Below, one piece after another: positions 5,962 through 51,510 of a DNA stretch of 64,000 nucleotides. The notes beneath the pieces are model-generated. The model was not told where the DNA came from and did not search any database. It was given only the letters and a program-made list of their open reading frames with translations. Position numbers and translations under genes: made by a program. Origin of the DNA: a virus. How positions within the stretch are numbered: position 1 is the first letter of the stretch; each line of letters starts with the position of its first letter. The stretch is taken from the IMG/VR virus record IMGVR_UViG_3300025784_000008; one strand, written 5' to 3'.

Positions 5962-5983
5962 TGGCTACAGAGTCTGCGACCAC
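5962..5983. repeat. dyad element, copy 1 (degenerate: TGGCTACAGAGTCTGCGACCAC)
   Basis: Matches the dispersed palindrome family. Confidence 0.6.
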
Positions 5984-5984
5984 A

Positions 5985-6034
5985 GCAGAAGGGCACCCTC
6001 GTCAGGAATCGAGGGTGCCCTAAGTCTGCTTTTT
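5985..6034 (+). terminator. rho-independent terminator
   Basis: GCAGAAGGGCACCCTCG...CGAGGGTGCCCTAAGTCTGC stem followed by T6. Confidence 0.6.
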
Positions 6035-6035
6035 T

Positions 6036-6051
6036 ACGGCCTAAGCAGATG
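6036..6051 (+). promoter_or_regulatory. conserved ACGGCCTAAG motif upstream of gene 6083
   Basis: ACGGCCTAAGCAGATG directly follows the terminator T-run, 32 nt before the GTG. Confidence 0.4.
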
Positions 6052-6082
6052 TAGCCTTTTCTATTAGAAATGGAGGTTGTTC

Positions 6083-6544
6083 GTGTCTAACAAGAAAGAA
6101 GCCCCCGCCCCGGAGGGGGAACCGAAAGCCAAGCTTCCCCCCGATGTCGAGCAGTTCATCAACGACGAGATCAGCTATCTGCGGAAGATGGGCCTGGCCG
6201 GCGATCTTGAGGTCATGGCGGAGAGGGCGATGGAGCGCCTGAACCGCAAACATGAAGAGCTCAGGGACCTCGAATCCGAGCTCGACATCGTTGAGTACGA
6301 CATCAAGCAGAAGGACAAGGTCATTGACGAGTGGTGCAAGCCCCACCGCAAGATCCTGAGCCGGCTGCTGGTACTGGTCTTCAAGATCCGCAAGCCCTTC
6401 GACAAGTACTACGACGAGTTCGAAGAGCTGAAGAAAAAGAAGACCATCCTGGAGGCTCGTCGGGGAGCCCTTCTCGATGAGATTGATTCCGAAACCGATC
6501 TGGCCAAACGCGCAGCTGCGTGCCGCCGGGCAATGACCAGGTAG
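6083..6544 (+). CDS. coiled-coil protein
   Basis: GTG start at 6083, six nt after GGAGG. Charged heptad-like sequence. Confidence 0.55.
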   Translation: MSNKKEAPAPEGEPKAKLPPDVEQFINDEISYLRKMGLAGDLEVMAERAMERLNRKHEELRDLESELDIVEYDIKQKDKVIDEWCKPHRKILSRLLVLVFKIRKPFDKYYDEFEELKKKKTILEARRGALLDEIDSETDLAKRAAACRRAMTR

Positions 6545-6554
6545 GAGAACAATC

Positions 6555-7370
6555 ATGGGTCGTTTGACTGTCCACGTTCCTTTCAACGTGGGAGACCTTG
6601 TATTTGCTGCTGGTGTTGATGAACACCAGTACACCTGTGAGTGCGCGATGTGCAGCGGGTACGGCACCCTCAAAATACCGGAGGGCACGAAAGTCATAGG
6701 GGCCGAGGAAGAGGAAGGAGACTGGCTCGCAGACGACGAGGCAGAGTGCCCTGCTTGCGAAGGCTACGGCTCAGATGACGAGGAGGTTGAGATCCTGTTC
6801 CCGTGCCTGGTTGGCCGAATCTCGCGCATCACAGCTGACGTAACCGCGGATCTCGACGAAGAGAGTCCCGACGAGTACGAAGAGGTAATGGTAGGCATCC
6901 GTCACCTTGCCGTCGCTAACCTTGACGGAGAGTCCGAGATGTCGATGACCGAACAGATGATTCGGTTCTACCACGCACTCAAGGCCGGCGAGATCATGGA
7001 CTTCAACACCGTGGTCAAAGGATCACCCACCACGGTGAGGGTGGACCGCATTCACAAGACCTACAAGCAGCTGTGTGAATACGTCTTGAAGGAGAACCTG
7101 GAAACCTTCAAGAAGATCCACGAGGATCTGACCAACCAGGAATACGAGATTCCGACCGTGGACCGGATGGGCGCCATCCACGTCTGCAACGAAATCGTGG
7201 CCATCCAGGACATGATCCTGGGCATCTACCCGGAGCTCGCAAAGCTCACCCCCGGCTACAAGGCCAAAGGCAAGAAGACCAACAAGAAGACCGAAGGGAA
7301 GACGGAGAAGAAGCCGAACGAGGCCCTCATGGCTCTGTCTTCTGTAGAGGTCGAGGAGGCACTGTTTTGA
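6555..7370 (+). CDS. zinc-finger protein, CxxCxGxG paralog 1
   Basis: CAMCSGYG and CPACEGYG motifs. Acidic C-terminal half. Confidence 0.6.
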   Translation: MGRLTVHVPFNVGDLVFAAGVDEHQYTCECAMCSGYGTLKIPEGTKVIGAEEEEGDWLADDEAECPACEGYGSDDEEVEILFPCLVGRISRITADVTADLDEESPDEYEEVMVGIRHLAVANLDGESEMSMTEQMIRFYHALKAGEIMDFNTVVKGSPTTVRVDRIHKTYKQLCEYVLKENLETFKKIHEDLTNQEYEIPTVDRMGAIHVCNEIVAIQDMILGIYPELAKLTPGYKAKGKKTNKKTEGKTEKKPNEALMALSSVEVEEALF

Positions 7371-7948
7371 ACATCCAAGACGTCAAGCCAGGCGATCGGG
7401 TCTGGCTGATTCGAAAAGGCCTGTCAGTTGGGATCAAGCTGGTATGTCCTGATTGTCGTGGTGTAGGGTTCGCGGGAGACATCATGATCCCCTGCAACAC
7501 CTGCGATGGCTATGAGTACATCCGCAAAGAGGTTCCCACCTTCGAGGTCGTTGGCGCTGTGAAGGTGCGCTCGGTGACGCACACCGGTGAACATGACGAC
7601 CCGGTCGTCGAGATTCTGAGGCCGCCGCTCTTCCTGTTGGATGCCTACGGGAACAACGTGATCGAGATGTGCAAGGATTACTGGGACGACTTCGAGAAGG
7701 GCAGGTCCCACGCAGGAGCCTACCCGCAGACAATCCGAGACCTCAGCCATCTGACGCTCACCTACGAAGAGGCCATCGAGCGTGCCAACGAGCTGACCAA
7801 CTACCACATTCAGGACGCCTGTGACCAGGAGAAGACCGTACTCTATGACCGCCCGGAAGATGTATTCAGGCAGACGGCCGTTGGTCAGGCCCAGGCAGAC
7901 ACGGTTGAGATCTTCAAGGAAACAGCGATCGAAGAAGCCCTTTGTTAG
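7367..7948 (+). CDS. zinc-finger protein, CxxCxGxG paralog 2
   Basis: CPDCRGVG and CNTCDGYE motifs. Its start overlaps the stop of the preceding gene. Confidence 0.6.
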   Translation: MNIQDVKPGDRVWLIRKGLSVGIKLVCPDCRGVGFAGDIMIPCNTCDGYEYIRKEVPTFEVVGAVKVRSVTHTGEHDDPVVEILRPPLFLLDAYGNNVIEMCKDYWDDFEKGRSHAGAYPQTIRDLSHLTLTYEEAIERANELTNYHIQDACDQEKTVLYDRPEDVFRQTAVGQAQADTVEIFKETAIEEALC

Positions 7949-7958
7949 GAGAAAGGTG

Positions 7959-8699
7959 ATGTCAATACGTGGAAGGCGGAGAAACTCCGACCATCAGAGA
8001 TACACCTCGTACTTCATGAAGCAGCACGTTCACATGATCGCTCCTCGGACAAAGAGCGTGTCGATCGACTGCAACACCTGTCACGGCACGGGCACGGATG
8101 GGTACTTCCAGCCGTGCTCCGAGTGTGACGGTGACGGCAAGAAGACCTACAACCTCACCCTGTACGAGTATGTCGGTGACGTGGAGATCGCCGGCTGCTC
8201 GGTCACCGCGGGAGGGAAGACCTACAGCGTTCGCTACTTCGATCTGTTCCACATTCCAGAGATGGTTCGAGCAGAGGAGTCGAAGCGGCGTTGGGATGCC
8301 ATTGATGTAGGCCGCCGGCCTATGTCCGACGCCAACTGGTCCAGCAACATACCTGAGGACTGTCTGTTCTCATCCATCGGTCTCGCAATGGACGTCGCTT
8401 ACGAGAACAACCTGGACATCCTCCAGGGTTTCACCAAGACGCAGGCGTTGGCCATACTCAAGTTGTTCGACGAGCATGAATCGTCAACCGCTACTCCATC
8501 GGTTGACTCTTCTGGCGCCTTGGTTCCGAAGGAGCTGCTGAGTGATCCTCCGGAGACGGTGGAGATGACGCTGGGTGAATACCCGATGCTCACGTTTGAA
8601 ACCTACTCACAGTCGATGCAAGGCAATGACCGCATCGTTACCGAGTCTGACTTCCGCAAGCGGCACGCTGACGTGAAGATCGAGACCGCTTTGACCTGA
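7959..8699 (+). CDS. zinc-finger protein, CxxCxGxG paralog 3
   Basis: ATG at 7959 after AGGAGAAAGG. CNTCHGTG and CSECDGDG motifs. Confidence 0.6.
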   Translation: MSIRGRRRNSDHQRYTSYFMKQHVHMIAPRTKSVSIDCNTCHGTGTDGYFQPCSECDGDGKKTYNLTLYEYVGDVEIAGCSVTAGGKTYSVRYFDLFHIPEMVRAEESKRRWDAIDVGRRPMSDANWSSNIPEDCLFSSIGLAMDVAYENNLDILQGFTKTQALAILKLFDEHESSTATPSVDSSGALVPKELLSDPPETVEMTLGEYPMLTFETYSQSMQGNDRIVTESDFRKRHADVKIETALT

Positions 8700-8708
8700 G
8701 GAGAGAAC

Positions 8709-9785
8709 ATGGGATTCAAAATTGACAGCATGGTGTGCATCCATCTCCCTCGGTGGAAACAGATCGCATTCTTCTGCGGTCAGTGTGCCGGTACCGGGTT
8801 CTCCGGTACAGGAACTTGTTTCAAGTGTAACGGCTCTGGTATTCGCACAGAGAGGTTGCAGTACCTGGTCTTTGGCGGCGTGGCCAAGATTACAGGCTTG
8901 TTCTCCATCCAGGGACAGACCACGTACACCATCGTCTATCCGTTCCTGCAGGGACTTCTCGACCACTCCAAGCAGGACACTCAGCAGATCATGGATGTAT
9001 CGTCCGCGTTCTGGGAGAAGAATAAGGACTCTCAACAGAAGAGCCCGCCTGGAACGGTCACGATGCAGATTCCGGAAAGTCAGGTGTTCCACACCTACAA
9101 CGAGGCCATCCAGAACCTCACCAAGTGCAACAAAGAGGTAATCGACGAAGGCATCCGCCGGCACGGTGGCGTTCCCGGTATCTTTGAGGAGAACCCGGAG
9201 AAGATCAAGCCGAACACGACATCCCGAACCGGCGGTACGCCGTACAGCGGTAAGCCGTATGGAGAGCCGCGGGTCAATGACTTGTTGTGGGCAGTCGAGT
9301 ACCACGGCAATGTCCAGAAGTTCTTCCGGTGTCCGCAGTGCAAAGGCGAGGCCAAGAAGGCCAACGTCAAGTGCTCCAGGTGCCACGACTCAGGGCACAT
9401 TGCGATGCACATCCCGCAGTACATCCTGAGGGGGCAGGTACGTGTTATCGGAACTATGTCCGGTGACTACCTCGACCTTGAGGCAGCTCCGATTCCCTAC
9501 GTGGATGACGACACCCACGCCCTGATCACCAAGAACTACTGGGTCAATCACGCCGAGGGCACGGACAACCGCATCCCCAAGAACACGATTGCCACCTGGG
9601 AACATCTGTTCTACACGGTGGACGGGGCCAAAGAGTGGCTCGCCAAGAAGAACGAGACCATGCTCAGGCAGTGGTGCGAGGATCACCACGACATCCTCCC
9701 TGTGGGGATGGACGGCGAGGTTCTTGAAGGGTTCAAGCCCAAGGTCGGCCCCAAGCCCGTACCCATCGAAGCCTGCCTCTGCTAG
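8709..9785 (+). CDS. zinc-finger protein, CxxCxGxG paralog 4 (two finger pairs)
   Basis: CGQCAGTG, CFKCNGSG, CPQCKGEA and CSRCHDSG motifs. Confidence 0.6.
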   Translation: MGFKIDSMVCIHLPRWKQIAFFCGQCAGTGFSGTGTCFKCNGSGIRTERLQYLVFGGVAKITGLFSIQGQTTYTIVYPFLQGLLDHSKQDTQQIMDVSSAFWEKNKDSQQKSPPGTVTMQIPESQVFHTYNEAIQNLTKCNKEVIDEGIRRHGGVPGIFEENPEKIKPNTTSRTGGTPYSGKPYGEPRVNDLLWAVEYHGNVQKFFRCPQCKGEAKKANVKCSRCHDSGHIAMHIPQYILRGQVRVIGTMSGDYLDLEAAPIPYVDDDTHALITKNYWVNHAEGTDNRIPKNTIATWEHLFYTVDGAKEWLAKKNETMLRQWCEDHHDILPVGMDGEVLEGFKPKVGPKPVPIEACLC

Positions 9786-9793
9786 GAGGGACA

Positions 9794-10099
9794 ATGTGTT
9801 ACTACCCGCCGAGGTTCCTGGAAGGGACCAGGGTTCGCGTTATCAGGCACGGCAGCGATCCAAAGTACGCCAGGGAAGGCGTCGTCGTACAGATGTTCGG
9901 CGGCGCCACCTGTGGCGTGTTTGACGTAATCTTTGACGGCGACGACTACCGCTCTACGTGTTCGGAGTGGGACCGTGTGGAGAGGATCTATGAAAACGAA
10001 GAGAGGAAAGCCCCTCCCGAAAAAGAAGTACCCGAAGAATCTGAAGTGGATCTACGAAGTTTGCTACAGGATGCGTGGAGACGTCGAGGCGGAGCATAA
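9794..10099 (+). CDS. hypothetical protein (the 3' part overlaps the next ORF in another frame)
   Basis: ATG after AGGAGGGACA. The N-terminal 70 aa look genuine. Confidence 0.4.
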   Translation: MCYYPPRFLEGTRVRVIRHGSDPKYAREGVVVQMFGGATCGVFDVIFDGDDYRSTCSEWDRVERIYENEERKAPPEKEVPEESEVDLRSLLQDAWRRRGGA

Positions 10100-10256
10100 G
10101 ATCACCGAGATCATGAACTGCCAGTCAATCGAAGAGGTCAAGACGGCGTTCTACTCGACTCCACGCTTCAAGGGCATGACGTTGGCCAGCTGCCGCCGGC
10201 TGCGGAGGATGGTCCCCGAAGATCTTGAGAAACTTGAGGCCCCGGCAAGGCTGTGA
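9990..10256 (+). CDS. hypothetical basic protein
   Basis: ATG at 9990 after GGAGAGGA. Lys-rich N-terminus. Confidence 0.4.
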   Translation: MKTKRGKPLPKKKYPKNLKWIYEVCYRMRGDVEAEHKITEIMNCQSIEEVKTAFYSTPRFKGMTLASCRRLRRMVPEDLEKLEAPARL

Positions 10257-10278
10257 TGGCTGCAGAGTCTGCGGCCAC
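10257..10278. repeat. dyad element, copy 2: TGGCTGCAGAGTCTGCGGCCAC
   Basis: Lies immediately after the stop codon of gene 9990-10256. Confidence 0.7.
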
Positions 10279-10312
10279 GAGAGAAGGGTGGTCGCTCAAC
10301 CCTTCTCTTTTA
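10279..10312 (+). terminator. rho-independent terminator at the convergent block boundary
   Basis: GAGAGAAGGGT...ACCCTTCTC stem followed by TTTT. Confidence 0.55.
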
Positions 10313-10549
10313 GTACGTGAATTCACCCCGCTGCCGAGAACCCACCCAGGCGTCCCGAGCGTTACTCGCGTCCAAGGTCAGGTGGTACTCGTAACCGTCG
10401 TAATAGAACAGATCATGGTTCCGAAGAGCATAGACTCCAGTTTGAAGGTCCAGGAACGTGTCCACCTTCGGAAACGAATGCCCGAGCGCCTGCTCTCTGA
10501 GTATGTTCTGTACATAGTCTTCGAGCTGTTTTGACCAGTAGCATTTCAT
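10310..10549 (-). CDS. hypothetical protein
   Basis: 79-aa ORF. Confidence 0.45.
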   Translation of the reverse strand: MKCYWSKQLEDYVQNILREQALGHSFPKVDTFLDLQTGVYALRNHDLFYYDGYEYHLTLDASNARDAWVGSRQRGEFTY

Positions 10550-10851: not shown

Positions 10852-11140
10852 TGGTACTACTCCTGTCCTGAAGCCACTGCTCTGTTTTGAGCTGAATAAG
10901 ACGAAGCGCCCACATCGGATCCTTCCAGATGTCTTTGTACAACCACTGCCGCATCTTGGGAAAGTAGCGCTTGAGATCGTCACGAGCACCGTCGTATTGA
11001 GCCGCATACACCTTTGCATGATGAACGACGGTTTTCTGGTGAACCAAGGGTAGCCGTTCGAATCTCTTCTGTATGCGGTCCAGCCCCGAGGAGAACAGAT
11101 CCAACGGAAATACCGACCTGAATTCTTCCCAGGGAGTCAT
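10844..11140 (-). CDS. hypothetical protein
   Basis: 98-aa ORF. Confidence 0.5.
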   Translation of the reverse strand: MTPWEEFRSVFPLDLFSSGLDRIQKRFERLPLVHQKTVVHHAKVYAAQYDGARDDLKRYFPKMRQWLYKDIWKDPMWALRLIQLKTEQWLQDRSSTNV

Positions 11141-11670
11141 GCTGTGTTTCCTTTTCTGATGTCGGTTTTAGGGGCTCTACCAGGAATGAGCTTGAGGATA
11201 GGATCCCCGGTCTCGTCAAGGGGGACAGACCTGTTCTGCTTGCGCTGGCGTCCAAGCTTGATACCGGTCAGGTAGCGTTCGCTGAGCTCCGATCCCTTCA
11301 TAAGGTGCTTGAGCTCGTCCATGGACTCAGGCTCAAACAGCAGGAAAAGGTTGGCCTTCTGGCCGGTGGACGCCCCGGTACGATTCACACGCCGAATCAG
11401 CCCCAGCTTCTCAAGTTCGGCAGACCATTCCCTCACCGTGCTCATACTTCGTCCGCACAGCTTTGCCAAGGTTCTCACAGAGGGGTGGCGATGCTCGCCT
11501 TTGAACCCGCCGTAGCTGGCGATCACCGTGTACAGGAACTTCCACTCCAAAGGTATAGGCAGGATGATCAGCCACTTCGGCATCGTCGAGTAGGGCGTGG
11601 AGGGAAGATCTACTGATTGCATAAGAAAAGCTCCCGGAGCAGGCGTCGTTCTTTGGCGAAGAAGACACAT
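11137..11670 (-). CDS. winged-helix/HTH DNA-binding protein (candidate replication or regulatory protein)
   Basis: PSVRTLAKLCGRSMSTVREWSAELEKLGLIRRV helix-turn-helix. It borders the 630-bp repeat-rich non-coding region. Confidence 0.45.
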   Translation of the reverse strand: MCLLRQRTTPAPGAFLMQSVDLPSTPYSTMPKWLIILPIPLEWKFLYTVIASYGGFKGEHRHPSVRTLAKLCGRSMSTVREWSAELEKLGLIRRVNRTGASTGQKANLFLLFEPESMDELKHLMKGSELSERYLTGIKLGRQRKQNRSVPLDETGDPILKLIPGRAPKTDIRKGNTA

Positions 11671-11784
11671 ACACGGGAGCTTTAGCCGTTTGGGCCATAC
11701 TCATAGTACGTGTCTTCTTCGCCGAGAACAACCCTACTCCGGCGAGAATTTTATGTCAAGAACGTATGGAGAAAAGCGTGCATC

Positions 11785-11926
11785 CCCCACCGGTGTATCG
11801 GCGGGGGACCCCCACCGGTGTACGCTACCCCTATAAGTAATACTAACTGCTAACCATCCCCCTACAGGGGATGGAAGTAACTGTACCAGTTACTTCCATC
11901 CCGCTCCCCCAGCGGCTGCGCCGCTG
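11785..11926. promoter_or_regulatory. cluster of direct repeats and perfect hairpins in a 630-bp non-coding region (candidate origin or regulatory region)
   Basis: CCCCCACCGGTGTA appears twice, and each copy contains the CACCGGTG palindrome. CCATCCCC-CTACA-GGGGATGG forms a hairpin. GGATGGAAGTAACTG-TAC-CAGTTACTTCCATCC is a 15-bp perfect stem. CAGCGG-CTGCG-CCGCTG forms a further hairpin. Confidence 0.4.
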
Positions 11927-12302
11927 TGGTCGTCGGACGAGCTAAAAAGAAAAGGGTACTTTTACTTGATCGCCTTAGCGGCGTAGGGTATACCACACCC
12001 GACGTACAGACCTCTGCCGATCTGTGCTTCATGTACTACCTTCCTTGTTTGAGTAAGACGGTCGAACTAACCTTCGGCCGTTTTGCTTTCAATGGGCCTA
12101 CAACCCATCTGGCGTTCGATATGAGCAGCCTGAATGGCCGAAAGGTCTTCGGATACCCTAAGGTACCCGCCGAACGATCCTGGAGGCGTTTTATCGTAAA
12201 AAACAGGGGGTGGTTATGCTGGACCAAGGCCCACCCCCTGATTAGACGGTTTACCTGCGCCGCTCATTCGAGCCCACAGTCTCGGGCAGTCACGCAGGGC
12301 CG

Positions 12303-12725
12303 TCAGTCCCTGTCACTTGAAGACATCTGGTCGATTACGGTTTCGGCGCCCTCCGGAATGTTGTCGTTCGGCACCTCGACGTACTGGCCGTCTCGTACCT
12401 CGTACGTACTGTCGCCCTCCGCCTTATCCGGGTTTACTAACCTGATTGCCGGGCCGAGCCAGCCAAAGATGCACTCCCCGTCGTCGGCCCTGAACCACAT
12501 GACATCTCCGATGTCATCACCGCTTCTCCTGATTTTCTGGAGAAGAGTCACGGCTTCTTTTGAGATGCCGAGATGATTCTTGGTGTCTCGTACCAGGCAG
12601 CCGATCTTCGACCCACCGTTGGGGATGAAGAACTTCGTCCCACTCCAGTACTCTTCTGGCGTGTCGATCACCAGTATCCCCTTGTACGAAAGCACTCTGA
12701 TAAGCGGTTTGGTATCTTCCGTCAT
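12303..12725 (-). CDS. hypothetical protein
   Basis: 140-aa ORF. GGAGATTTAC precedes the ATG. Confidence 0.55.
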   Translation of the reverse strand: MTEDTKPLIRVLSYKGILVIDTPEEYWSGTKFFIPNGGSKIGCLVRDTKNHLGISKEAVTLLQKIRRSGDDIGDVMWFRADDGECIFGWLGPAIRLVNPDKAEGDSTYEVRDGQYVEVPNDNIPEGAETVIDQMSSSDRD

Positions 12726-12764: not shown

Positions 12765-12785
12765 GTGGCTGCAGACTCTGCAGCC
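12764..12785. repeat. dyad element, copy 3: TGGCTGCAGACTCTGCAGCCAC (perfect 10-N-10 palindrome)
   Basis: Sits between the terminator and the promoter motif. Confidence 0.7.
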
Positions 12786-12796
12786 ACGGCGGGACT

Positions 12797-12832
12797 AAAA
12801 AGAAAGCCCCCCGGTTAGAGGGGGCTGTTCTT
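12797..12832 (-). terminator. rho-independent terminator
   Basis: GCCCCC...GGGGGC stem flanked by A/T runs. Confidence 0.6.
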
Positions 12833-14191: not shown

Positions 14192-14692
14192 CTACTCGTC
14201 GAGAGCTTCCAGGTACTCTCGACCAGCCTGGACTACCAAGAAGTTGTCGGTGGGGGTCTGGTAGATCAGCTGACCCCCGTGCAGGAGACTGTGGAACCGG
14301 AACGGCTCATCCAATCCGAACCGTTCCAGATCCTGGTCGCCGTACACCCCACAGATGATCGCCTTATCCAGCATCCTCTTGGCCGCCTGCTTCTCCAGGA
14401 GAACGTACCAGGACTGGAAATCGATGATGCGCTCGGGGGTGTCGTCGCGGTAGATGTACTCCCGCGTTTCCGTCTTCACCGCCATGAAACGGCGGAAAGA
14501 CGGATCCCTGCCGTAGACCAGCGGCGAATCGTTCCAGATGACTCCCTGGACGTGCCCGCTCTTGGTCAACTCAAGCTGGCCCTCACGAGCCCCGGTAAGG
14601 ATCATGTTCTTCCACAAGAGATTGAACGGCTCGTTGTAGTAGTCTTGCCCCCAAAGCGGGGCGATCTTGCGAATGACTCGGGACACGGTCAT
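14192..14692 (-). CDS. hypothetical protein
   Basis: 166-aa ORF. Confidence 0.55.
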   Translation of the reverse strand: MTVSRVIRKIAPLWGQDYYNEPFNLLWKNMILTGAREGQLELTKSGHVQGVIWNDSPLVYGRDPSFRRFMAVKTETREYIYRDDTPERIIDFQSWYVLLEKQAAKRMLDKAIICGVYGDQDLERFGLDEPFRFHSLLHGGQLIYQTPTDNFLVVQAGREYLEALDE

Positions 14693-15802: not shown

Positions 15803-15838
15803 CGTAAAAAAGAAGCCCCCTATGCGGGGGCCCCTTTC
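15803..15838 (-). terminator. rho-independent terminator
   Basis: GCCCCCGCATAGGGGGC stem with a T-run, read on the minus strand. Confidence 0.6.
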
Positions 15839-16320
15839 TGTGGCTGCAGAGTCTGCGGCCATCGTTCCGGTCTTATGGTAAGGCCCACGTTATTCAGCCA
15901 GGTTTTGACCGTGATGTTGGACCCATCATGGTCGACGACCGCGAGGCCGGGGCTCACGATGCCCAGCTCCACGGTGCGGAGAACCGCCTCCTGCAGGGAC
16001 TTGCTCGGAGGTGAATAACACCAACCGGAGTCGTATCCACTTAGACCATTGGCCCACCGGTAATAGACCTGAGACCTCCCCTCGCTGTCACAATACCAGA
16101 GGTCGCGACCCCCCTGCATGTACTCGCGGCATTGGTAGTGACCGAGAAACTTACAGCAGACGCACCCTTTGAAGTGTTCAAACCGAGGTTTTCCCAGGAT
16201 CACCTTTGGAGTAACCCCCATTACTTCTGCAAAGAGTTCAATCTCCCGGAGGCGTGCCTCGTAAAGACCGCCGGGAGTCATTAGCTTCAGCAGTTCTTCT
16301 CTGTCCATTCTTTCCCCCAT
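15820..16320 (-). CDS. Cys-rich hypothetical protein
   Basis: CVCCKFLGHYQC and related Cys-rich stretches. Confidence 0.5.
   Translation of the reverse strand: MGERMDREELLKLMTPGGLYEARLREIELFAEVMGVTPKVILGKPRFEHFKGCVCCKFLGHYQCREYMQGGRDLWYCDSEGRSQVYYRWANGLSGYDSGWCYSPPSKSLQEAVLRTVELGIVSPGLAVVDHDGSNITVKTWLNNVGLTIRPERWPQTLQPQKGAPA
15841..15862. repeat. dyad element, copy 4: TGGCTGCAGAGTCTGCGGCCAT
   Basis: Overlaps the last codons of gene 15820-16320. Confidence 0.7.
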
Positions 16321-16829: not shown

Positions 16830-17054
16830 TTAGTAAGTGTGGCCGGGATACTTTACCCATGCCCCATCCTTCTTCGTCCTCAGGAGGGTTCGCTTTATGC
16901 CGAACTTTCGTTTCTGCGTGAGGTACCACGATGCGGCCTGAAGCTCGTTGTCGAAGTACAGGGTGCCGGTAGGATCCTCCACTTTGTGGGTCGAAGATGA
17001 TGACTCCTGTTTGGTGATCATTCGAAAACCTCCTTTCACCTTCTTAGGCCGCAT
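16830..17054 (-). CDS. hypothetical protein
   Basis: 74-aa ORF. Confidence 0.4.
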   Translation of the reverse strand: MRPKKVKGGFRMITKQESSSSTHKVEDPTGTLYFDNELQAASWYLTQKRKFGIKRTLLRTKKDGAWVKYPGHTY

Positions 17055-24521: not shown

Positions 24522-24535
24522 CCTCTTAGACCGTA
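24522..24535 (-). promoter_or_regulatory. ACGGTCTAAGAGG motif upstream of gene 23897-24487
   Basis: Directly follows the terminator T-run on the minus strand. Confidence 0.35.
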
Positions 24536-24562
24536 AAAAAGGAGCCCCTAAGGAGCTCCTTG
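24530..24562 (-). terminator. rho-independent terminator
   Basis: AAGGAGC...GCTCCTT stem with a T-run. Confidence 0.5.
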
Positions 24563-24584
24563 TGGCTGCAGAGTCTGCCGCCAT
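24563..24584. repeat. dyad element, copy 5: TGGCTGCAGAGTCTGCCGCCAT
   Basis: Lies immediately after the stop of gene 24585-24884. Confidence 0.7.
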
Positions 24585-24884
24585 TTAGGTGGTGACGGGC
24601 TTTTTGCCGAGGCATTCGATGGTCAGATCGACGAAGTCTCGCAGGTTCTCCAGCTGGTTCAGGCTGAGAGCGTCGTCGCCCTCGATGAGGGCTCTCGCGG
24701 TCATGACGAGCTCACCGCGGCCGTACTCGCGTTCACCATCGTCCGCTGATCTCATGGCATCAGCGACCAGCGCGGCGGCTTTGATCACCTGAACAGCCAT
24801 CCAGCGTTCACGTTCTGTTGGTCCGATATCTTTGGCGATAGCCATGGTTTCTCCCTTACTTGATCTTGGTGAACGGGTAGACAC
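24585..24884 (-). CDS. hypothetical protein
   Basis: 99-aa ORF. Confidence 0.45.
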   Translation of the reverse strand: MSTRSPRSSKGETMAIAKDIGPTERERWMAVQVIKAAALVADAMRSADDGEREYGRGELVMTARALIEGDDALSLNQLENLRDFVDLTIECLGKKPVTT

Positions 24885-25778: not shown

Positions 25779-26321
25779 TTACGGGTAACGGGCCAAAATG
25801 TCGATGTTGCCGAACTCCTTTTCGGCACGCGCAACGAGCTTGTCAACGTACTCCTTCGTCAGCTTCTGTCCCTTCGGGAGCTGGTAATGCCGGAACATAT
25901 TCGGATCACTGTTGGTCGGGCGGAAGATCAGGCCGTGATTCTTGGCCATACGCTTGCACTGCTTCTCTGACTCGTGCCGATCTACCAGATACTCGATGAA
26001 GTCTGACGGGTCCCAGGCCGTCGGCAGAGGCGTGTCGGTACCGAAGCCGTATTCCTTGCGGAAGGCCTCTTCACGCTCCACCGCAAGCTTCACGCACTCA
26101 GGGCTGGCCAGGAACTCCTGAATGTACTCAGGCGCTTTCCAGTGACCTTCCTTCCACTCGATGCGGGGCTCTCCACCGGTAGCATCGTCAGCCACGAAGG
26201 CGACTTCTTTTTTGTTCAGCATCAAGGTGGCGTTGAATCCTTGTCCTTCCATGCCGCGGAAGGTCTTGAACCCCTTGAGGCTGAAGTCCTGCAGTTTGAT
26301 GCTCTCTTTCGTTTCTGCCAT
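25779..26321 (-). CDS. hypothetical protein
   Basis: ATG at 26321 after AAAGGA. Confidence 0.5.
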   Translation of the reverse strand: MAETKESIKLQDFSLKGFKTFRGMEGQGFNATLMLNKKEVAFVADDATGGEPRIEWKEGHWKAPEYIQEFLASPECVKLAVEREEAFRKEYGFGTDTPLPTAWDPSDFIEYLVDRHESEKQCKRMAKNHGLIFRPTNSDPNMFRHYQLPKGQKLTKEYVDKLVARAEKEFGNIDILARYP

Positions 26322-26345: not shown

Positions 26346-26377
26346 GAAAATGGCTGCAGAGAAAGCAGCCATTTGAG
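26346..26377 (-). terminator. rho-independent terminator
   Basis: AAATGGCTGC-AGAGAAA-GCAGCCATTT stem. Its arms resemble the dyad-element half-sites. Confidence 0.55.
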
Positions 26378-29647: not shown

Positions 29648-29692
29648 GAACGTCCTCCTTGAACGATCCGATGAAGTACTTCTTCCGCCTAC

Positions 29693-29708
29693 TCTCTTAG
29701 GCCCTATA
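29693..29708 (-). promoter_or_regulatory. GGGCCTAAGAGAG motif upstream of gene 29516-29647
   Basis: Variant of the ACGGCCTAAG family. Confidence 0.35.
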
Positions 29709-29730
29709 TGGCCGCAGACTCTGCAGCCAC
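29709..29730. repeat. dyad element, copy 6: TGGCCGCAGACTCTGCAGCCAC, in a divergent intergenic region
   Basis: Lies between a minus-strand gene start (29647) and a plus-strand gene start (29754). Confidence 0.7.
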
Positions 29731-29753
29731 GGCTGGCTATACTGACTGATGTC

Positions 29754-36603: not shown

Positions 36604-36915
36604 CTACTCTTTCTTTGTTTTGGCTCGACGCCGACGTTCCAACTCGGCCACGATCAAGGCACCGGCGCGAATAAGGTCCCGCTCGGGATCCTTGGGCTTC
36701 CACCACTTCCAATCCCATGGCCAGAAGCGTTTCAAGATCGCCTCGAATGACACAGGTGAAATGGCCCCCGTGTTGACTGCGTAGAGGCCAGCGGCGATGG
36801 CCATCTCGCCATCCTTGTGTTGGTTGTCGTGGTGGTCGGTCCAGCCCTCTACGTTCTTCTGGCGTTCACGCTCCGCGGCGATGTCGGCCAGTACTGCTGC
36901 AGTTTCGCTACTCAT
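36604..36915 (-). CDS. conserved phage protein with a W-x-D-HHD-x-QH-x-DGE-x-A-x-AA motif (possibly an NTP pyrophosphohydrolase-like family)
   Basis: AERERQKNVEGWTDHHDNQHKDGEMAIAAGLYA. I tentatively recall this pattern from phage dATP/dGTP pyrophosphohydrolase-like families. Unverified. Confidence 0.3.
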   Translation of the reverse strand: MSSETAAVLADIAAERERQKNVEGWTDHHDNQHKDGEMAIAAGLYAVNTGAISPVSFEAILKRFWPWDWKWWKPKDPERDLIRAGALIVAELERRRRAKTKKE

Positions 36916-37198
36916 GTTTTGACCTTTCGAGTTCATCCAGATACTTGAGGAGCATTTTCTCCCCAAGCTCATTCTTGGCGGTGATAGTTACGATCGCTTT
37001 GGATGGGTCGTCGGGATCCGTTCTTACGTCGTACTCAAAAGGTGGGACCCTGGAAAAGTAATCGACCAAAACCCTCTCAATGGCGCCCTGGACCTCACGC
37101 AGATCCTCTTCCACGGAGAGCTCAAACAGCGGTCTCCCGACGATCTTCTTGATTTCTTCCTTGAATTGATGAGCAAGCCTTTGGACGTTTTCTTTCAT
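36908..37198 (-). CDS. hypothetical protein
   Basis: 96-aa ORF. Confidence 0.45.
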   Translation of the reverse strand: MKENVQRLAHQFKEEIKKIVGRPLFELSVEEDLREVQGAIERVLVDYFSRVPPFEYDVRTDPDDPSKAIVTITAKNELGEKMLLKYLDELERSKHE

Positions 37199-37266
37199 GG
37201 TTATTCCTTTTGAACTAAGAGAAAAGGCCCGAAGGCCTAAATTCTCTCCATCTGCTTAGACCACAC

Positions 37267-37288
37267 ATGGCTGCAGAGTCTGCAACCA
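37267..37288. repeat. dyad element, copy 7: TGGCTGCAGAGTCTGCAACCAC
   Basis: Lies just after the stop of the AAA+ gene. Confidence 0.65.
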
Positions 37289-37292: not shown

Positions 37293-38678
37293 CTAAGCCG
37301 CGATGTTCTTGTCCTCCCATTTCTTGTTGAGAGCCGTGCGGATGCAGATCTCCTGGAAACTGGCCGGCGTGATGTCTTCGTAGGACCTGGCCATCTCCTC
37401 GATCTTTTCCGCGGAGATCATGTCCCCACAGATCATCTGAGCCATCTGCAGTCTCCCCTCGTACGGCAGCTCGCCGAGTTCAACGACGCGGTCGACACGT
37501 CCTGGCCGAGAGCCGATCTCCTCGGTGGACCCTCCGCCCAGCGCAGGATCGAGGAGCTCAACGTTGTTGGTGGTTATGAACAGCAGAGTACCGTCGGTAC
37601 GGTCTACGCCATCAATCAGGTTCAGTAGACAATCGAACGTTACGCCCTGCACGTTTTGCGGGGTAGCGATGTTCTTGCGACCGTGGAAGATACCGTCGAT
37701 GTCCTCGATCAGGATGATCCTCTTACCGTACAGCTGGCAGCGGATGCGCCAGGCATTGGACAGGTACTGGTTGTCCATCGAGGCCAGGTCGAAGACGTAG
37801 ATCGGAAGATCGAACTTCTGTCCGATGGCCCGAACGAAGCTGGATTTACCAGTCCCAGGTCTACCGTAAAATACGTAGCCGCGATGCCACGGGATGTTGC
37901 GATCACGGTACCAATCCTGGTTATCGATCCAGAACTCAATCTCCCTCACCACTCGTTCCTGGTTGGCGTCAAGAATCAGCGACCGGAACGCCTCAGCACC
38001 CTCGTTCTGACCGACGTCATCCCACTTGAAGTCGATCGGCAACTGAGCCTTCATGTCGAAGCCAACACCGCCGGAAGCCTTGGTATGACTGCTCGGAGAC
38101 GCCACCATATTTTCAGGGATCGGCCCGGAGTTATGGTCGGTCATCATTCTCAGGCTGCCGACAACGTAATCGACGAAGAAGTTGGAGTCCTTGTCAAACT
38201 GTGTATCTTCTTCGAGGTCGCGGTTCAGGACCTTTAGCCCTTCTTCGACGAAATGATGGAACGGAAACGTCCAACGGATAAACCGAATCATGGTGTGACT
38301 GTGTTGGTTCACTCCTTCTTTTGGCTCCGTCCTCGACGGCTGAAACCATACAGGACGCCACCCGATCCAAAACAACGTGGACTGCTCACTGAGACTTTCG
38401 TAGGCCACATACCGCCACTTCCGTTTGGAGCGTAGCCAGGCGAGGAATGAGCTGTACGCCCTGATACCAAACTTGCGGCGCCGGCCGTTTCGACCCAAGT
38501 AGGTCTGGATGCCGGTGCTCAGCTTGTAGTCTGAAACCTGCTGCGGAACGATGATGAAAGACAGGGCCTTGATCATCATCTGCCTGGTCTTCCCCCAGAT
38601 AGATGCGAGGTAACCCAGAACCAAAAGGCCGGTAGCGCCAATGGCGGCCTCAAGGCCGCCTATCTGCGGAAATTCCAT
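37293..38678 (-). CDS. AAA+ ATPase with an N-terminal membrane anchor (BCS1-like architecture)
   Basis: Walker A YGRPGTGKSSF, Walker B IILIEDIDGIF, and a sensor-like TTNNVELLDPAL. N-terminal hydrophobic helix. Confidence 0.7.
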   Translation of the reverse strand: MEFPQIGGLEAAIGATGLLVLGYLASIWGKTRQMMIKALSFIIVPQQVSDYKLSTGIQTYLGRNGRRRKFGIRAYSSFLAWLRSKRKWRYVAYESLSEQSTLFWIGWRPVWFQPSRTEPKEGVNQHSHTMIRFIRWTFPFHHFVEEGLKVLNRDLEEDTQFDKDSNFFVDYVVGSLRMMTDHNSGPIPENMVASPSSHTKASGGVGFDMKAQLPIDFKWDDVGQNEGAEAFRSLILDANQERVVREIEFWIDNQDWYRDRNIPWHRGYVFYGRPGTGKSSFVRAIGQKFDLPIYVFDLASMDNQYLSNAWRIRCQLYGKRIILIEDIDGIFHGRKNIATPQNVQGVTFDCLLNLIDGVDRTDGTLLFITTNNVELLDPALGGGSTEEIGSRPGRVDRVVELGELPYEGRLQMAQMICGDMISAEKIEEMARSYEDITPASFQEICIRTALNKKWEDKNIAA

Positions 38679-43756: not shown

Positions 43757-43783
43757 AAAAAGAAAGGGCTCTGGGAGCCCTTT
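43751..43783 (-). terminator. rho-independent terminator
   Basis: AAAGGGCTC...GAGCCCTTT stem with a T-run. Confidence 0.55.
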
Positions 43784-43788
43784 CTGTG

Positions 43789-43810
43789 GCTGCAGACTCT
43801 GCGGCCACTA
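43789..43810. repeat. dyad element, copy 8: TGGCTGCAGACTCTGCGGCCAC
   Basis: Overlaps the stop of gene 43808-44221. Confidence 0.7.
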
Positions 43811-44221
43811 ATTCCCTCCGCCCAGGACCTCGATCGTGGAGTTGCACCCATCCTCTACGACATGCACCACCATCAACTCGTATCGCTTGTACAGCCAGGA
43901 GACTATGCGGTTTCTGAAAAGCTGGACAACAAAGAGAATCAACAGCATGGCGCCAGGAAGAAGAGTGGCCAGCGGAAGCCAGGTTGTCTCCGTGAGGATA
44001 GACAACAAGAGGGTAGCGAGAACAGCGGCGTGTCCGGAAATGATGAGACCGTGAATGTGCATGTTACATCTGTGGAGGAGAAACAGGTGCACGATACGGA
44101 TGAACGCCTCAAACTGGATCGAAGTGAGAGCAACCTTGCCGTTCGTAACCTGAATCGCTCCAACCATCTTTTGTATCTCGTCGGTGGTTACGATCACCGA
44201 TCTTCCGGCTGTAAACATCAC
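43808..44221 (-). CDS. membrane protein
   Basis: Three or four hydrophobic helices. Confidence 0.5.
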   Translation of the reverse strand: MMFTAGRSVIVTTDEIQKMVGAIQVTNGKVALTSIQFEAFIRIVHLFLLHRCNMHIHGLIISGHAAVLATLLLSILTETTWLPLATLLPGAMLLILFVVQLFRNRIVSWLYKRYELMVVHVVEDGCNSTIEVLGGGN

Positions 44222-45683: not shown

Positions 45684-45702
45684 AACAATCTCCTTGCCGT
45701 GG

Positions 45703-46458: not shown

Positions 46459-46477
46459 GACGTAAACCCTTTCTTAC

Positions 46478-46492: not shown

Positions 46493-46505
46493 AAGCTAAA
46501 AGAAA

Positions 46506-46527
46506 TGGCCGCAGAGTCTGCAGCCAT
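46506..46527. repeat. dyad element, copy 9: TGGCCGCAGAGTCTGCAGCCAT
   Basis: Lies just after the stop of gene 46534-46983. Confidence 0.7.
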
Positions 46528-46533
46528 CTCCTT

Positions 46534-46983
46534 CTATCCAACCTTTCGGTAGGTCTTCCTTCTGGCGGCACCGTAGACCGTAAAGTAGCTCAAGTTGAGC
46601 CGGCGGGCGATGATGCTTATCGGGAACTCTTGATCAGCCATACGTCGGATCTCGGTAACGACCAGGTCCGGAAGGCGATCACCGGTTTGAAGCCGACTAA
46701 CTGCTGCCCGCACCTCGTCAGGTATGGGTTCAACCTGAGCTCTCTTCCAGGCCTTCCTCACCCGACGAAGACGGTTGTGCTCTTTGTCTACCTTATCCCA
46801 ATCAGGACAAATGAAATGTCCGGGAGTGTCGTCGTTCACCCAAGCCCAGCATTTTCTGTGGGCAATCCTCCAGGCATGAACCAACGATATGCCGTAGTCC
46901 AAAGCAATAGTCAGGGAAGACTCCGACCCAAACCGTTTACGGATGTCCCGAACGCCGTCGGCGTTCAGTGGCTTAGTCGTCAT
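46534..46983 (-). CDS. DNA-binding protein with two HTH-like segments (candidate transcription regulator)
   Basis: LTIALDYGISLVHAWRIAHRK and ISIIARRLNLSYFTVYGAARRK are HTH-like segments. Confidence 0.45.
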   Translation of the reverse strand: MTTKPLNADGVRDIRKRFGSESSLTIALDYGISLVHAWRIAHRKCWAWVNDDTPGHFICPDWDKVDKEHNRLRRVRKAWKRAQVEPIPDEVRAAVSRLQTGDRLPDLVVTEIRRMADQEFPISIIARRLNLSYFTVYGAARRKTYRKVG

Positions 46984-46992
46984 TGCTCCTCT

Positions 46993-49081: not shown

Positions 49082-49098
49082 CTTCGTAGTCCTAATTG

Positions 49099-49135
49099 AA
49101 AAGGCCGGCCCCCGAAGGAGCCGGCCAGCTTTTGA
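49099..49135 (-). terminator. rho-independent terminator
   Basis: GGCCGGC...GCCGGCC stem with a T-run on the minus strand. Confidence 0.55.
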
Positions 49136-49152
49136 AAGTCCTCAGGTTCTGC

Positions 49153-49536: not shown

Positions 49537-49552
49537 CCTTTCTCCTTCGTCG

Positions 49553-49768
49553 TTAGATGAATTCTTTGGACGGATCGATCCCCAGCTCCTCAAGACGCTT
49601 GAGGAGCCTCTCAGCGGACAACCCGGTAAACATGCTCGAATCCTCGCTGATGACGGAGTATATGTCCAGGTCCCCGTTCTTGTGGACATCCAGGAACCAT
49701 CCTAGTGCGTGGTCTTTGCCCCACAGCACGTGCCGCCCATCAGCGAGCTTCTCATGATGCTGGCTCAT
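49553..49768 (-). CDS. hypothetical protein
   Basis: ATG at 49768 after GGAGGAG. Confidence 0.4.
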   Translation of the reverse strand: MSQHHEKLADGRHVLWGKDHALGWFLDVHKNGDLDIYSVISEDSSMFTGLSAERLLKRLEELGIDPSKEFI

Positions 49769-49770
49769 CA

Positions 49771-50271
49771 CTACTCCTCCGGTTCGGGTAAGCCAACACT
49801 GGCGTCCCACCGATTCGTGTGCTTCAGAAACTTGACAGCCAGAGCGTACATGGCTGCAGCCTGCGGTCCCTGGAACGGAGTGCTCATCGGCAGCCCATGT
49901 ACGGAGTTACGGTGCTTCAACGCACACACCGGACATGACGCGTACGTCCCTTCTGTAGACACCGACTGGGCGATTAGTGCCAACGGGAAGTCGATCTTAC
50001 AGATCTTACACTTTTCCAGGTCCTCTGGAGCAAGCGTGTCGAACTGTTCTTCCAGCCCCGGAAAGTTGTGTTCAAAATACAGGTAGGTCCCGTCTTCTTG
50101 TTGAATGCGGACCTTGCCCAGGTATTCCAGTTCTTCGTCAGCCTCCGAATCGAAAGGAATCCCTATCTCGGAGAGCTCATGAAGCGGGATCCAGATGAAC
50201 ACATCCTCGTGGCCCTTGGGAGCCGCGTACATCAGCTCGATGTTCTTGGCCTTCGTATATTTTTCAGCCAC
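49771..50271 (-). CDS. Cys-containing acidic protein
   Basis: CKICK...CPVC motif. Confidence 0.5.
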   Translation of the reverse strand: MAEKYTKAKNIELMYAAPKGHEDVFIWIPLHELSEIGIPFDSEADEELEYLGKVRIQQEDGTYLYFEHNFPGLEEQFDTLAPEDLEKCKICKIDFPLALIAQSVSTEGTYASCPVCALKHRNSVHGLPMSTPFQGPQAAAMYALAVKFLKHTNRWDASVGLPEPEE

Positions 50272-50340
50272 TCACCCCCCTTTCATGTAAATAAAGAAGA
50301 GGGGCTTTCGCCCCCGCTTCTTCTCGGCAACGCAGGACCT

Positions 50341-50808
50341 TTAGGTGGTCTGGGGTGTAGACCGGGCCCTGCTCTGGTATTCCCCAGCGCCTGTCCCCTC
50401 TTTCGGAAGGACGTTCATGGTGACCTCCTTCTGCTTAGGCGCCAGCAGCCTCTCTGCGAGGCCGCTAATGAGTGTGTTGAACCGAACAACCTTGAACTTC
50501 TCCCTGATCGCCAACTTGATCAGGTAGACGGCGTCCGCCGCCAGGTCTTTGTCCCGTTCGAGGTTCTCGTACAGGACCATGGCGTCCGCCGACTTGAGAA
50601 TCGGTGGAAGAACCTCTTCAACGAACAGTTCCAGGAACTCTGGATCTGATCGGTTGCAATCGTGAAGCCACTTCAGCCAGCAGCTGAAGTTTTCGAAGTC
50701 CTCGTCGTCGAGGACTCCTGATTCCTTGACGATCCTGAGGACCGTCATCGCGCCAACGGATAACCCCTTATCCGTTAACGACTTACCAGTGCCGAGTATA
50801 CCTTGCAT
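50341..50808 (-). CDS. hypothetical protein
   Basis: 155-aa ORF. A GGCCTAAGGAGGTG motif lies upstream. Confidence 0.5.
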   Translation of the reverse strand: MQGILGTGKSLTDKGLSVGAMTVLRIVKESGVLDDEDFENFSCWLKWLHDCNRSDPEFLELFVEEVLPPILKSADAMVLYENLERDKDLAADAVYLIKLAIREKFKVVRFNTLISGLAERLLAPKQKEVTMNVLPKEGTGAGEYQSRARSTPQTT

Positions 50809-50856
50809 TGCTTCACCCCTTTCCGGTGAAAGGCCTATAGATTCCCTTTCACCTCC

Positions 50857-51471
50857 TTAGGCCGGATCGATCGGGGTTTTTGGGTCACCGCCTCCCATCA
50901 GTTGCAGGTTACCGTGAATTTTCATCCAGACGGGAAAGCGCATCTCCCAAAGTTTGAGGGCGAAGACTTCCCTGGCGCGGTACCGGTCAGACATCTTGTC
51001 GGTCAGCCGCGACGACCTCCAAGGCGGACAGATCCGTTTCTTTTCTGACAGCTTCGGTTCAGCCCTGGAGTTCCTGACCGCCCATGCCAAGGCGTTCTCG
51101 GTGCCTCGGATCATGTGAAGCAGGTTGGCCATTTTGGCTACTACCCAGTACAGATGAATCGCCTTCTCGATGCTTTCGCGGAGTTCACCCTGTATGGGTA
51201 TCCCGCCGTTCAGGATACTCTGGAGTACCGTCTTACGGTGAACCACCTTGGCGGAGAGCTTGGCGAGGCCAACCGCACAGCGTGCACGATCTGAGGCGGA
51301 ACAGCCGTGGTCTCCGATGGCCAACAAAAGGCTAAGTCCCTGCGCCTCGGCAAAGCCGGCGCGGCGGTACTCAACCTCAGGAGCGATATTCATCACCGGC
51401 AACGAGATGTTGACGTGGTCCAGGAAATCGTCGAACGGGATCCATGGTTTATCTACGGTCATCGCTGACAT
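50857..51471 (-). CDS. hypothetical protein
   Basis: ATG at 51471 after AGAAAGGA. The longer ORF predicted in the track overlaps a divergent gene. Confidence 0.5.
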   Translation of the reverse strand: MSAMTVDKPWIPFDDFLDHVNISLPVMNIAPEVEYRRAGFAEAQGLSLLLAIGDHGCSASDRARCAVGLAKLSAKVVHRKTVLQSILNGGIPIQGELRESIEKAIHLYWVVAKMANLLHMIRGTENALAWAVRNSRAEPKLSEKKRICPPWRSSRLTDKMSDRYRAREVFALKLWEMRFPVWMKIHGNLQLMGGGDPKTPIDPA

Positions 51472-51488
51472 CGTGTCCTTTCTGGTTG

Positions 51489-51510
51489 TGGTCGCAGACT
51501 CTGCGGCCAT
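51489..51510. repeat. dyad element, copy 10: TGGTCGCAGACTCTGCGGCCAT, centred in the 48-bp divergent intergenic region
   Basis: Lies between a minus-strand start (51471) and a plus-strand start (51520), at a strand-switch point. Confidence 0.7.

Follow-up and report, generated by a model that had tools for sequence, protein, structure and literature searches.

Dispersed palindromes at the gene boundaries of a large anaerobic-digester phage as candidate operators

Why should a phage carry the same short palindrome at the ends of so many of its genes? This question is raised by a 64,000-nucleotide stretch of the virus record IMGVR_UViG_3300025784_000008 (hereafter the window, meaning the whole stretch that was analysed), for which an original prediction made from the sequence alone had claimed ten dispersed copies of a dyad-symmetric element. 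Ten intact copies of TGGCYGCAGA-S-TCTGCRGCCA were found, at 5962, 10257, 12766, 15841, 24563, 29709, 37268, 43787, 46506 and 51489, compared with 0.01 expected from shuffled sequence. Seven of these coordinates agree with those predicted, and the remaining three, given as 12764, 37267 and 43789, were wrong by 1-2 nt. A search with TGGCTGCAGANTCTGCAGCCA allowing up to 3 mismatches (<=3) returned 11 window sites, namely the ten intact copies and a site at 26351 with a different centre, and the 9-bp core CAGA[G/C]TCTG occurs exactly 10 times in the 64 kb, each time within an intact copy. Megablast against known phage genomes returned no match, no Rfam family matches the element, and a literature search for its sequence found nothing relevant. 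Based on the sequence features described below we favour, with confidence slightly better than even, a reading of the element as a dispersed operator or roadblock through which one predicted two-fold symmetric protein would punctuate transcription units.

Placement, constraint and conservation of the palindrome

The copies were placed on a gene map self-trained on the window, which comprises six strand blocks and leaves 6,521 nt (10.2% of the window) as intergenic DNA. Nine of the ten copies are fully intergenic, a placement with a binomial probability of ~1e-8, and most lie 0-11 nt past a stop codon. On the transcribed strand the usual order is a stop codon, the palindrome, an optional intrinsic terminator, a second motif of the form GGYCTAAG (seen as GGCCTAAG or GGTCTAAG), and the next gene 27-45 nt further on. 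The setting of each copy is given below.

Copy 1, 5962-5982, no strand: TGGCTACAGAGTCTGCGACCA, with 3 mismatches; directly after the TGA stop of the HNH gene 5575-5961.
Copy 2, 10257-10277, no strand: abuts the TGA stop of 9990-10256, in a convergent junction.
Copy 3, 12766-12786: perfect dyad; read along the minus strand, a terminator comes first, followed after 9 nt by the palindrome, after a further 5 nt by GGCCTAAG, and then by gene 12303-12725.
Copy 4, 15841-15861: inside the end of open reading frame (ORF) 15820-16308 (minus strand); then a terminator and GGCCTAAG.
Copy 5, 24563-24583: 1 nt past the stop of 24585-24845 (minus strand); then a terminator and GGTCTAAG.
Copy 6, 29709-29729: central in the divergent junction 29648-29771; flanked on the left, at 5 nt, by GGCCTAAG (for the leftward gene) and on the right, at ~9 nt, by the -10-like hexamer TATACT.
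Copy 7, 37268-37288: 4 nt past the stop of the AAA-ATPase gene 37293-38678 (minus strand); 5 nt, then GGTCTAAG.
Copy 8, 43787-43807: abuts the TAG stop of 43808-44197 (minus strand); then a terminator and GGCCTAAG.
Copy 9, 46506-46526: 7 nt past the stop of 46534-46983 (minus strand); 17 nt, then GGCCTAAG.
Copy 10, 51489-51509: 57-nt divergent junction between 50857-51462 (minus strand) and 51520-51840 (plus strand); its right end forms CATACT, 10 nt ahead of the ATG.
Decayed copy, 26351-26371, minus strand: TGGCTGC-TTTCTCT-GCAGCCA plus a T-run, in the form of an intrinsic terminator.

Six copies (5962, 10257, 24563, 37268, 43787 and 46506) stand 0-7 nt from a stop codon, and all three of those predicted to lie in gene junctions do so, at 29709 and 51489 between divergent genes and at 10257 between convergent ones. 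Copy 12766 is 47 nt from the stop with a terminator between, and copy 15841 falls within the last 14 codons of ORF 15820-16308. This frame continues across the palindrome to a TAG located in the loop of the terminator that follows, and does likewise in the relatives L055 and L057. In the relative L016, three of four copies have TGG changed to TGA in the upstream arm (window 15820-15861 and L016 1456, 9751 and 14131 compared), which appears to put the stop of the upstream gene inside the element in at least two of them (1456 and 14131). The element as such is free of stop codons in all six frames.

The hairpin predicted at 26346 to carry half-site-like arms corresponds to the decayed copy at 26351. 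Here (26348-26374, minus strand) the centre has changed from AGAG to TTTC with the outer stem and the T-run kept, 30 nt ahead of gene 25779-26321, and at the same spot two relatives (L055 39 and L057 168) possess the perfect palindrome together with TTTTCTTTT. The other hairpin claimed to be related, at 63255-63285, was found to be an ordinary terminator (63243-63275) unrelated to the element.

Proteins of the window recur exactly on anaerobic-digester contigs of 130,556, 140,920, 154,167 and 195,499 bp, and the phage genome is on this basis ~195 kb, of which the window, JGI contig Ga0209605_1000319 (64,032 bp), is a 64-kb fragment. Flanking sequence from longer contigs supplied three copies outside the window (L044 5022; L040 6867 and 8744). 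The 21-mer was also present on IMG/VR contigs with no DNA or protein similarity to the window but related to each other (UViG_3300025784_000007, 76 kb; 3300031673_000253, 34.7 kb; 3300031669_000409, 16.3 kb, L033; and two shorter ones), which encode terminase, capsid-like, tail, RecA-like, DnaB-like and sigma-70-like genes missing from the window. Their 376-aa capsid-like protein belongs to a 90% cluster with members on the 154,167-, 195,499- and 140,920-bp contigs; the first and last of these carry window proteins, and the 195,499-bp contig is the longest with the window protein encoded at 14192-14692. Furthermore, in a 194-kb relative, a 47% homologue of a gene 4 kb past the right end of the window lies at a distance of 9 kb from the capsid gene. 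An element common to unrelated phages, or a host-determined motif, was accordingly rejected: the dissimilar contigs make up the structural half of the phage group to which the window belongs, with UViG_3300025784_000007 representing the structural/replication half of a close relative, and the element is therefore genome-wide in one phage clade.

A search of the rest of the genome and of relatives for the 21-mer, as the original prediction had proposed, identified at least 21 distinct sites in the ~140 kb of this phage group examined, which corresponds to about 25-30 sites over the ~195-kb genome, or about one per 7 kb. A host-genome repeat or uptake sequence was also rejected, with 3 single matches in 185,579 species genomes, a collection from which the host genome may be missing. 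Metagenome contigs provided 8 single 21-mer matches, of which one (L016) is a true relative. Almost no protein of the phage could be assigned to Pfam or PHROG families, leaving >90% of proteins without a family.

The 21 distinct sites yielded 42 half-sites, which were tallied by position.

Position -1 (flank): purine, 42/42.
Positions 1-3: TGG, invariant, 42/42.
Position 4: C 37, T 5.
Position 5: T 27, C 13, G 2.
Position 6: G 41, A 1.
Positions 7-10: CAGA, invariant, 42/42.
Centre: G 11, C 10, never A or T.

As predicted, copy 3 at 12766 is a perfect palindrome, and variation is concentrated at positions 4-6 and 16-18, mainly at the symmetric positions 5 and 17. The centre, originally labelled GANTC, is always GAGTC or GACTC, and the label understates the constraint because only G or C occurs there. 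In only 10 of 21 sites, no more than expected by chance, could the two flanks form a Watson-Crick pair, and the purine rule therefore acts per half-site and not via pairing. Isolated half-sites are absent from the window. Differences between arms are uncompensated save for one pair, and among the mismatches on the transcribed strand those of the C.A, G.A and A.C types are no rarer than U.G. Predicted RNA hairpin energies span -18.9 to -2.3 kcal/mol, and copy 5962, at the weak end, folds no better than shuffles. Between orthologous copies the central base flips from G to C and from C to G, a change to which a two-fold symmetric reader of the duplex would be blind but which would alter the apex of a hairpin loop, and the strand bearing GAGTC follows no pattern with transcription or position. 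This two-fold symmetry would fit duplex DNA read by a symmetric dimer, whereas a selected RNA or DNA hairpin would fit poorly; a role at mRNA 3' ends is moreover inapplicable to two copies because they lie between divergent genes.

At syntenic junctions, intact copies keep 20-21 of 21 bases in relatives whose proteins are 25-85% identical (L016, L055, L057; L004, L039, L005). Around them the flanking bases and terminator stems vary, and so does the very presence of a terminator and of GGYCTAAG, neither of which is found at L016 1456. L016, with proteins 25-83% identical to those of window positions 5-16.8 kb, possesses four copies at the same four junctions, and two further lineages (L055-L058) keep copies at sites 5962, 10257, 15841, 24563 and 26351. 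Syntenic counterparts were identified for copies 5962 (L016 14131, L055 16912), 10257 (L016 9751, L055 12602), 15841 (L016 1456, L055 9888, L056 7125, L057 9887, L058 6474) and 24563 (L055 2782, L057 5124). In the structural half, a copy two genes past the capsid gene is kept in L054, L004, L039 and L005. Together, these sequence comparisons suggest that the copies are under purifying selection. An intragenic copy was also found, at L054 6449-6469 (also L003 372, L005 1984 and L029 4445), in frame within the gene for a 984-aa intein-containing protein, where it encodes MAADSAAM in a variable linker; the orthologous codons of L053 (6424-6444) read TGGCTGCATCCGATGCAACCA, with 15 of 21 bases matching the palindrome.

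Terminators and promoter-like motifs beside the copies

Most copies had been described as immediately followed by a rho-independent terminator and ACGGCCTAAG. A GGYCTAAG motif does follow eight of the ten; a terminator follows only five (5962, 10257, 15841, 24563 and 43787), precedes one (12766) and is absent at four. The features concerned are listed below; the terminators were identified by reading the sequence and by a consensus scan.

5983-6035, plus strand: terminator hairpin and T-run between copy 1 and GGCCTAAG.
10278-10313, plus strand: equivalent terminator.
15806-15840, minus strand: equivalent terminator.
24535-24562, minus strand: equivalent terminator.
43757-43786, minus strand: equivalent terminator.
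12795-12826, minus strand: terminator upstream of copy 3.
6038-6045, plus strand: GGCCTAAG promoter-like motif downstream of copy 1.
12753, 15796, 24525, 29696, 37255, 43747 and 46481, minus strand: other palindrome-paired motifs.
29738-29743, 51507-51512, 51857-51866, 53431-53440 and 58338-58346, and L044 5041-5046: -10-like hexamers.

A T-run directly follows none of the ten intact window copies, whose terminators are separate and stand beside them, and is found only at the 26351 site and in its relatives. The gap between palindrome and GGYCTAAG is exactly 5 nt where no terminator intervenes (12766, 29709 and 37268) and otherwise 17-55 nt; GGYCTAAG also occurs without the palindrome, at 17043, 17486, 18169, 22181 and 33453. 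In its longer form, (T-run)AC-GGYCTAAG-AAGGTG, this motif constitutes a second repeat with 13 intergenic copies. All of these point the same way as the gene that follows and stand 27-45 nt ahead of its start codon, often immediately past a terminator. The repeat is kept in the relatives L016 and L055-L058 and absent from the structural half. This repeat is probably an early/middle promoter of the phage, whose genome has a gene for a sigma-70-family protein of its own; shuffles contain more canonical sigma-70 promoters than the window does.

Ahead of rightward genes of late/structural type we observed -10-like hexamers (TATACT, TATAAT, CATACT and GATACT) without a -35 element, which may constitute a late promoter class. 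At 51489 and at L044 5022, the end of the palindrome supplies part of such a hexamer. Also observed was a terminator-like hairpin, AGGCCTTCGGGCCT with a T-run (37225-37238, minus strand), which separates the GGTCTAAG motif from the beginning of gene 36908-37198; it is located in the presumed 5' leader and may be an attenuator.

Candidate roles and the search for a binding protein

Among the roles originally suggested, a phage-wide operator for a dimeric protein is the best supported, by the symmetric half-site constraint, the flanking purine in 42/42 half-sites, the G/C centre, the lack of compensation, and the conservation of both sequence and position. The predicted operator would span 23 bp (R-TGGCYGCAGA-S-TCTGCRGCCA-Y) and be read as duplex by a homodimer or a dimer of dimers, most likely phage-encoded, a host protein also being possible. 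One regulator would bind all sites, which directly follow stops, precede terminator/promoter cassettes or occupy the centre of divergent promoter regions, and many units would thus be switched together, as a temporal switch or by silencing. At gene ends, the bound protein would halt polymerase coming from upstream, in support of the intrinsic terminator or in its place. At sites touching a promoter it would occlude or modulate initiation, which we propose where GGYCTAAG lies 5 nt off (12766, 29709 and 37268), where CATACT abuts the palindrome (51489 and L044 5022) and where TATACT lies ~9 nt beyond it (29709). A symmetric site would also suit the divergent junctions at 29709 and 51489, between two outward-facing promoter-like elements. 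If one protein does read all sites, it would represent a master expression switch of an abundant, uncharacterised ~195-kb digester phage, for which the 23-mer would provide a biochemical handle on the regulator and the map of sites a ready operon map of the genome.

A number of observations weigh against this operator reading. The 21 kb around the capsid gene are without a copy in L053 (82% capsid-protein identity) and in L050 and L052 (61-62%), and the element is therefore not essential to the phage family; a search of these three relatives for another repeated palindrome found none. Copies in structural operons occupy gaps of 33-40 nt that separate a stop codon from the ribosome-binding site that follows, no promoter being close by, so that only the roadblock part of the proposal would apply to them. 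At site 26351, relatives combine the palindrome with a T-run, as in a terminator, and the window copy has kept the stem, which points to a role as a transcribed hairpin at least there. Nor did a protein scan (window proteins encoded up to 55164, using Pfam throughout and PHROGs for the first ~30 kb and ten selected proteins) recover a repressor, an integrase or ParB. The tandem helix-turn-helix (HTH) protein encoded at 46534-46983, beside copy 46506, had been put forward as a possible binder; it has no homologue but itself, and is an unlikely reader because relatives conserve the site without a homologue. For 14192-14692, the most conserved early protein, AlphaFold gave an uninformative, mostly beta-strand model (pLDDT 43) and a PDB sequence search came back empty.

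The proteins scanned include a DnaA-domain-IV-like HTH protein (693-1106), an HNH nuclease (5575-5961), a replication-initiator-like HTH_36 protein (11137-11583), and also dCTP deaminase, NUDIX, AAA, HD and metallophosphatase proteins; no methyltransferase, RNA polymerase, or transposase of the Y1 or REP-associated tyrosine transposase (RAYT) type is among them, where REP denotes repetitive extragenic palindromes. Matches of the Phage_integrase or ParBc type were found neither in these window proteins nor in the replication-region proteins of the second contig. Another proposed binder (11137-11670) looks like a replication initiator: the protein encoded at 11137-11583 matches replication initiators (HTH_36, phrog_270/391), is only 37-38% conserved, and was rejected. 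Two further suggested roles found no support. For methylation-sensitive control, no DNA methyltransferase is among the scanned proteins and GANTC is not enriched in the window (226 observed, ~243 expected); for a partition site, no ParB-like protein is among them and the sites are genome-wide and unclustered.

Other explanations would place the function in RNA, in the mobility of the palindrome itself, or in transcription initiation. A transcribed hairpin, REP-like or intercistronic, could act in 3'-end stability, attenuation or termination, in recruitment of an antiterminator or RNase, or by slowing ribosomes at the stop; the position of most copies 0-11 nt past a stop codon, the five that stand just ahead of a terminator, and folding energies of -10 to -19 kcal/mol for eight of ten copies are consistent with this, as are the T-run beside the palindrome in relatives at 26351 and the stem and T-run that the window copy kept there after loss of the core. 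We nonetheless regard this explanation as unlikely, since the transcribed strand carries C.A, G.A and A.C mismatches with no compensatory changes, copy 5962 folds like shuffles yet is conserved, apical G/C flips would disturb recognition of a loop, and the flanking purine rule is symmetric but non-pairing. Furthermore, 20 stem bases are invariant across diverged genomes in which the stems of adjacent true terminators drift, two copies lie in divergent promoter regions, and Rfam holds no match. Somewhat less likely still is a selfish copy-and-paste palindrome, or a target of a nickase, a homing or restriction-like nuclease, a recombinase or a topoisomerase, with no role in transcription. Absence of the element at 82% capsid-protein identity would be consistent with such a target, as would an element-bearing junction that measures 35 nt in L054/L004 and 5 nt in L053 and looks inserted, the difficulty of creating a 21-bp site at least 20 times by point mutation, the HNH gene adjoining copy 5962, and the tolerance of a stop-free element inside a gene. 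GAGTC, present in every copy (usually with CTGCAG), is the site of known nicking and type IIS enzymes. Set against this are positions that stay the same in four diverged lineages, where shared junctions never differ in having or lacking a copy, a lack of target-site duplications and of any conserved flank beyond R/Y, the lack of a RAYT or transposase in the window proteins scanned, the GAGTC strand that is unpatterned with transcription or position, and the lack of a host-genome repeat (the 3 single matches in species genomes noted above); the 15 of 21 bases at the intragenic site of a palindrome-less relative speak for gradual formation under selection and not for insertion.

A promoter element, for the phage's own sigma factor or as a sigma-54-like bidirectional promoter (TGGC...TGCA), would draw on the sigma-70-family protein encoded by the phage group, the scarcity of canonical sigma-70 promoters relative to chance, the resemblance of TGGC-N10-TGCA to the -24/-12 elements of sigma-54, and gene starts 12-45 nt downstream of many copies. 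In sigma-54 promoters GG and GC are exactly 10 nt apart (TGGCAC-N5-TTGC), and the GG-to-GC spacing in the dyad is 13, against 12 in that consensus. A terminator directly after many copies would end the transcript within 40 nt (<=40 nt), five GGYCTAAG sites (17043, 17486, 18169, 22181 and 33453) work without the element, and the next start codon is anywhere from 10 to >120 nt away; we consider such a promoter very improbable. Finally, a more speculative proposal, to which we assign only a small chance, is that the dyads serve a large, apparently lytic phage as a dedicated boundary system. Here one symmetric protein would insulate ~25 units, some of them within the structural operons, and the element might have spread by copy-and-paste to the first free position past stops, in a REP/REPIN-like manner, and been recruited later; it might also double as a DNA operator and, when joined to a T-run, as an RNA terminator stem.

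Three further features of the genome were observed. A 719-nt non-coding region (11584-12302) adjoins the replication-initiator-like gene 11137-11583. It contains a perfect hairpin of 16 bp (11868-11902), a 14-nt direct repeat whose two copies are 25 nt apart (11784 and 11809) and several further inverted repeats, and is a candidate origin of replication. Between copies 1 and 2, four adjacent genes at 6555-9785 encode proteins of 271, 193, 246 and 358 aa that are Cys-rich, with CXXC zinc-finger-like motifs, and form an apparent family, the 246- and 358-aa members having DnaJ_CXXCXGXG Pfam matches below the curated cut-off. Inteins are present in large phage proteins (L040 963-5090; L054 4129-7083; L050 1-462), among them one of 1,375 aa, which has LigD_N and ligase OB domains and is encoded just past the right end of the window, and the 984-aa protein of the head module.

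Comparison with known dispersed elements

By analogy, the closest known systems would be the stoperators of L5 and other cluster A phages and the SPbeta repeated element (SPBRE) with its binder MrpR, with the conserved inverted repeats (CIRs) of phiC31 and the operators of KorB also close. L5 and cluster A stoperators, bound by gp71, are >20 near-identical dispersed sites in promoters and short intergenic spaces, proposed to stop both initiation and elongation (PMC9283540). The 21 distinct sites described here, with nine of ten window copies intergenic and two in divergent promoter regions, resemble this arrangement. The L5 sites, however, are 13 bp, asymmetric, monomer-bound and oriented with transcription, whereas ours form a 23-bp perfect dyad whose central base ignores transcription; and L5 is a temperate phage with an immunity repressor, whereas the ~195-kb phage has no sign of lysogeny, with no repressor or integrase in the proteins scanned. 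SPBRE is a short motif in ~9-10 intergenic or promoter regions of SPbeta that was predicted in silico decades before its binder MrpR was found (PMC10516654). SPbeta is likewise a large phage. Its element, however, is 15 bp and lies in prophage promoter regions, whereas the present one is found mostly at gene ends, including the 33-40-nt gaps of structural operons, and MrpR has a tyrosine-recombinase fold with no such protein among those scanned in the window and in the replication region of the second contig.

Further comparisons concern elements from other settings. The CIRs of phiC31 are repressor-bound and occur in many intergenic regions near phage-specific early promoters and terminators, but are 17 bp, unrelated in sequence to our element, and belong to a temperate 41-kb Streptomyces phage. 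The KorB operators (OB) of the IncP plasmid RK2 comprise ~12 perfect palindromes over ~60 kb, promoter-proximal or distal, served by one dimeric global regulator; these are 13-bp plasmid sites bound by a ParB-family protein, and no ParB-like protein is present among the proteins scanned here. REP sequences and bacterial interspersed mosaic elements (BIMEs) are short extragenic palindromes just past stops and between genes, sometimes terminator-like. They are host-chromosome repeats with hairpin-preserving variation and an associated RAYT, whereas the phage element keeps its primary sequence, has uncompensated mismatches and no RAYT in the window scan. Promoter early stem-loops (PeSLs) of T4-type phages are repeated stem-loop and promoter cassettes at gene boundaries of large lytic phages; they are longer and implicated in gene shuffling, whereas here the palindrome is kept independently of the adjacent terminator and promoter. 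From these comparisons the element appears to work like the four closest systems while being a member of none by sequence, site geometry or associated protein, and the dispersed-operator strategy known in temperate actinophages and SPbeta would be extended to a large phage that encodes a sigma factor of its own and shows no sign of lysogeny.

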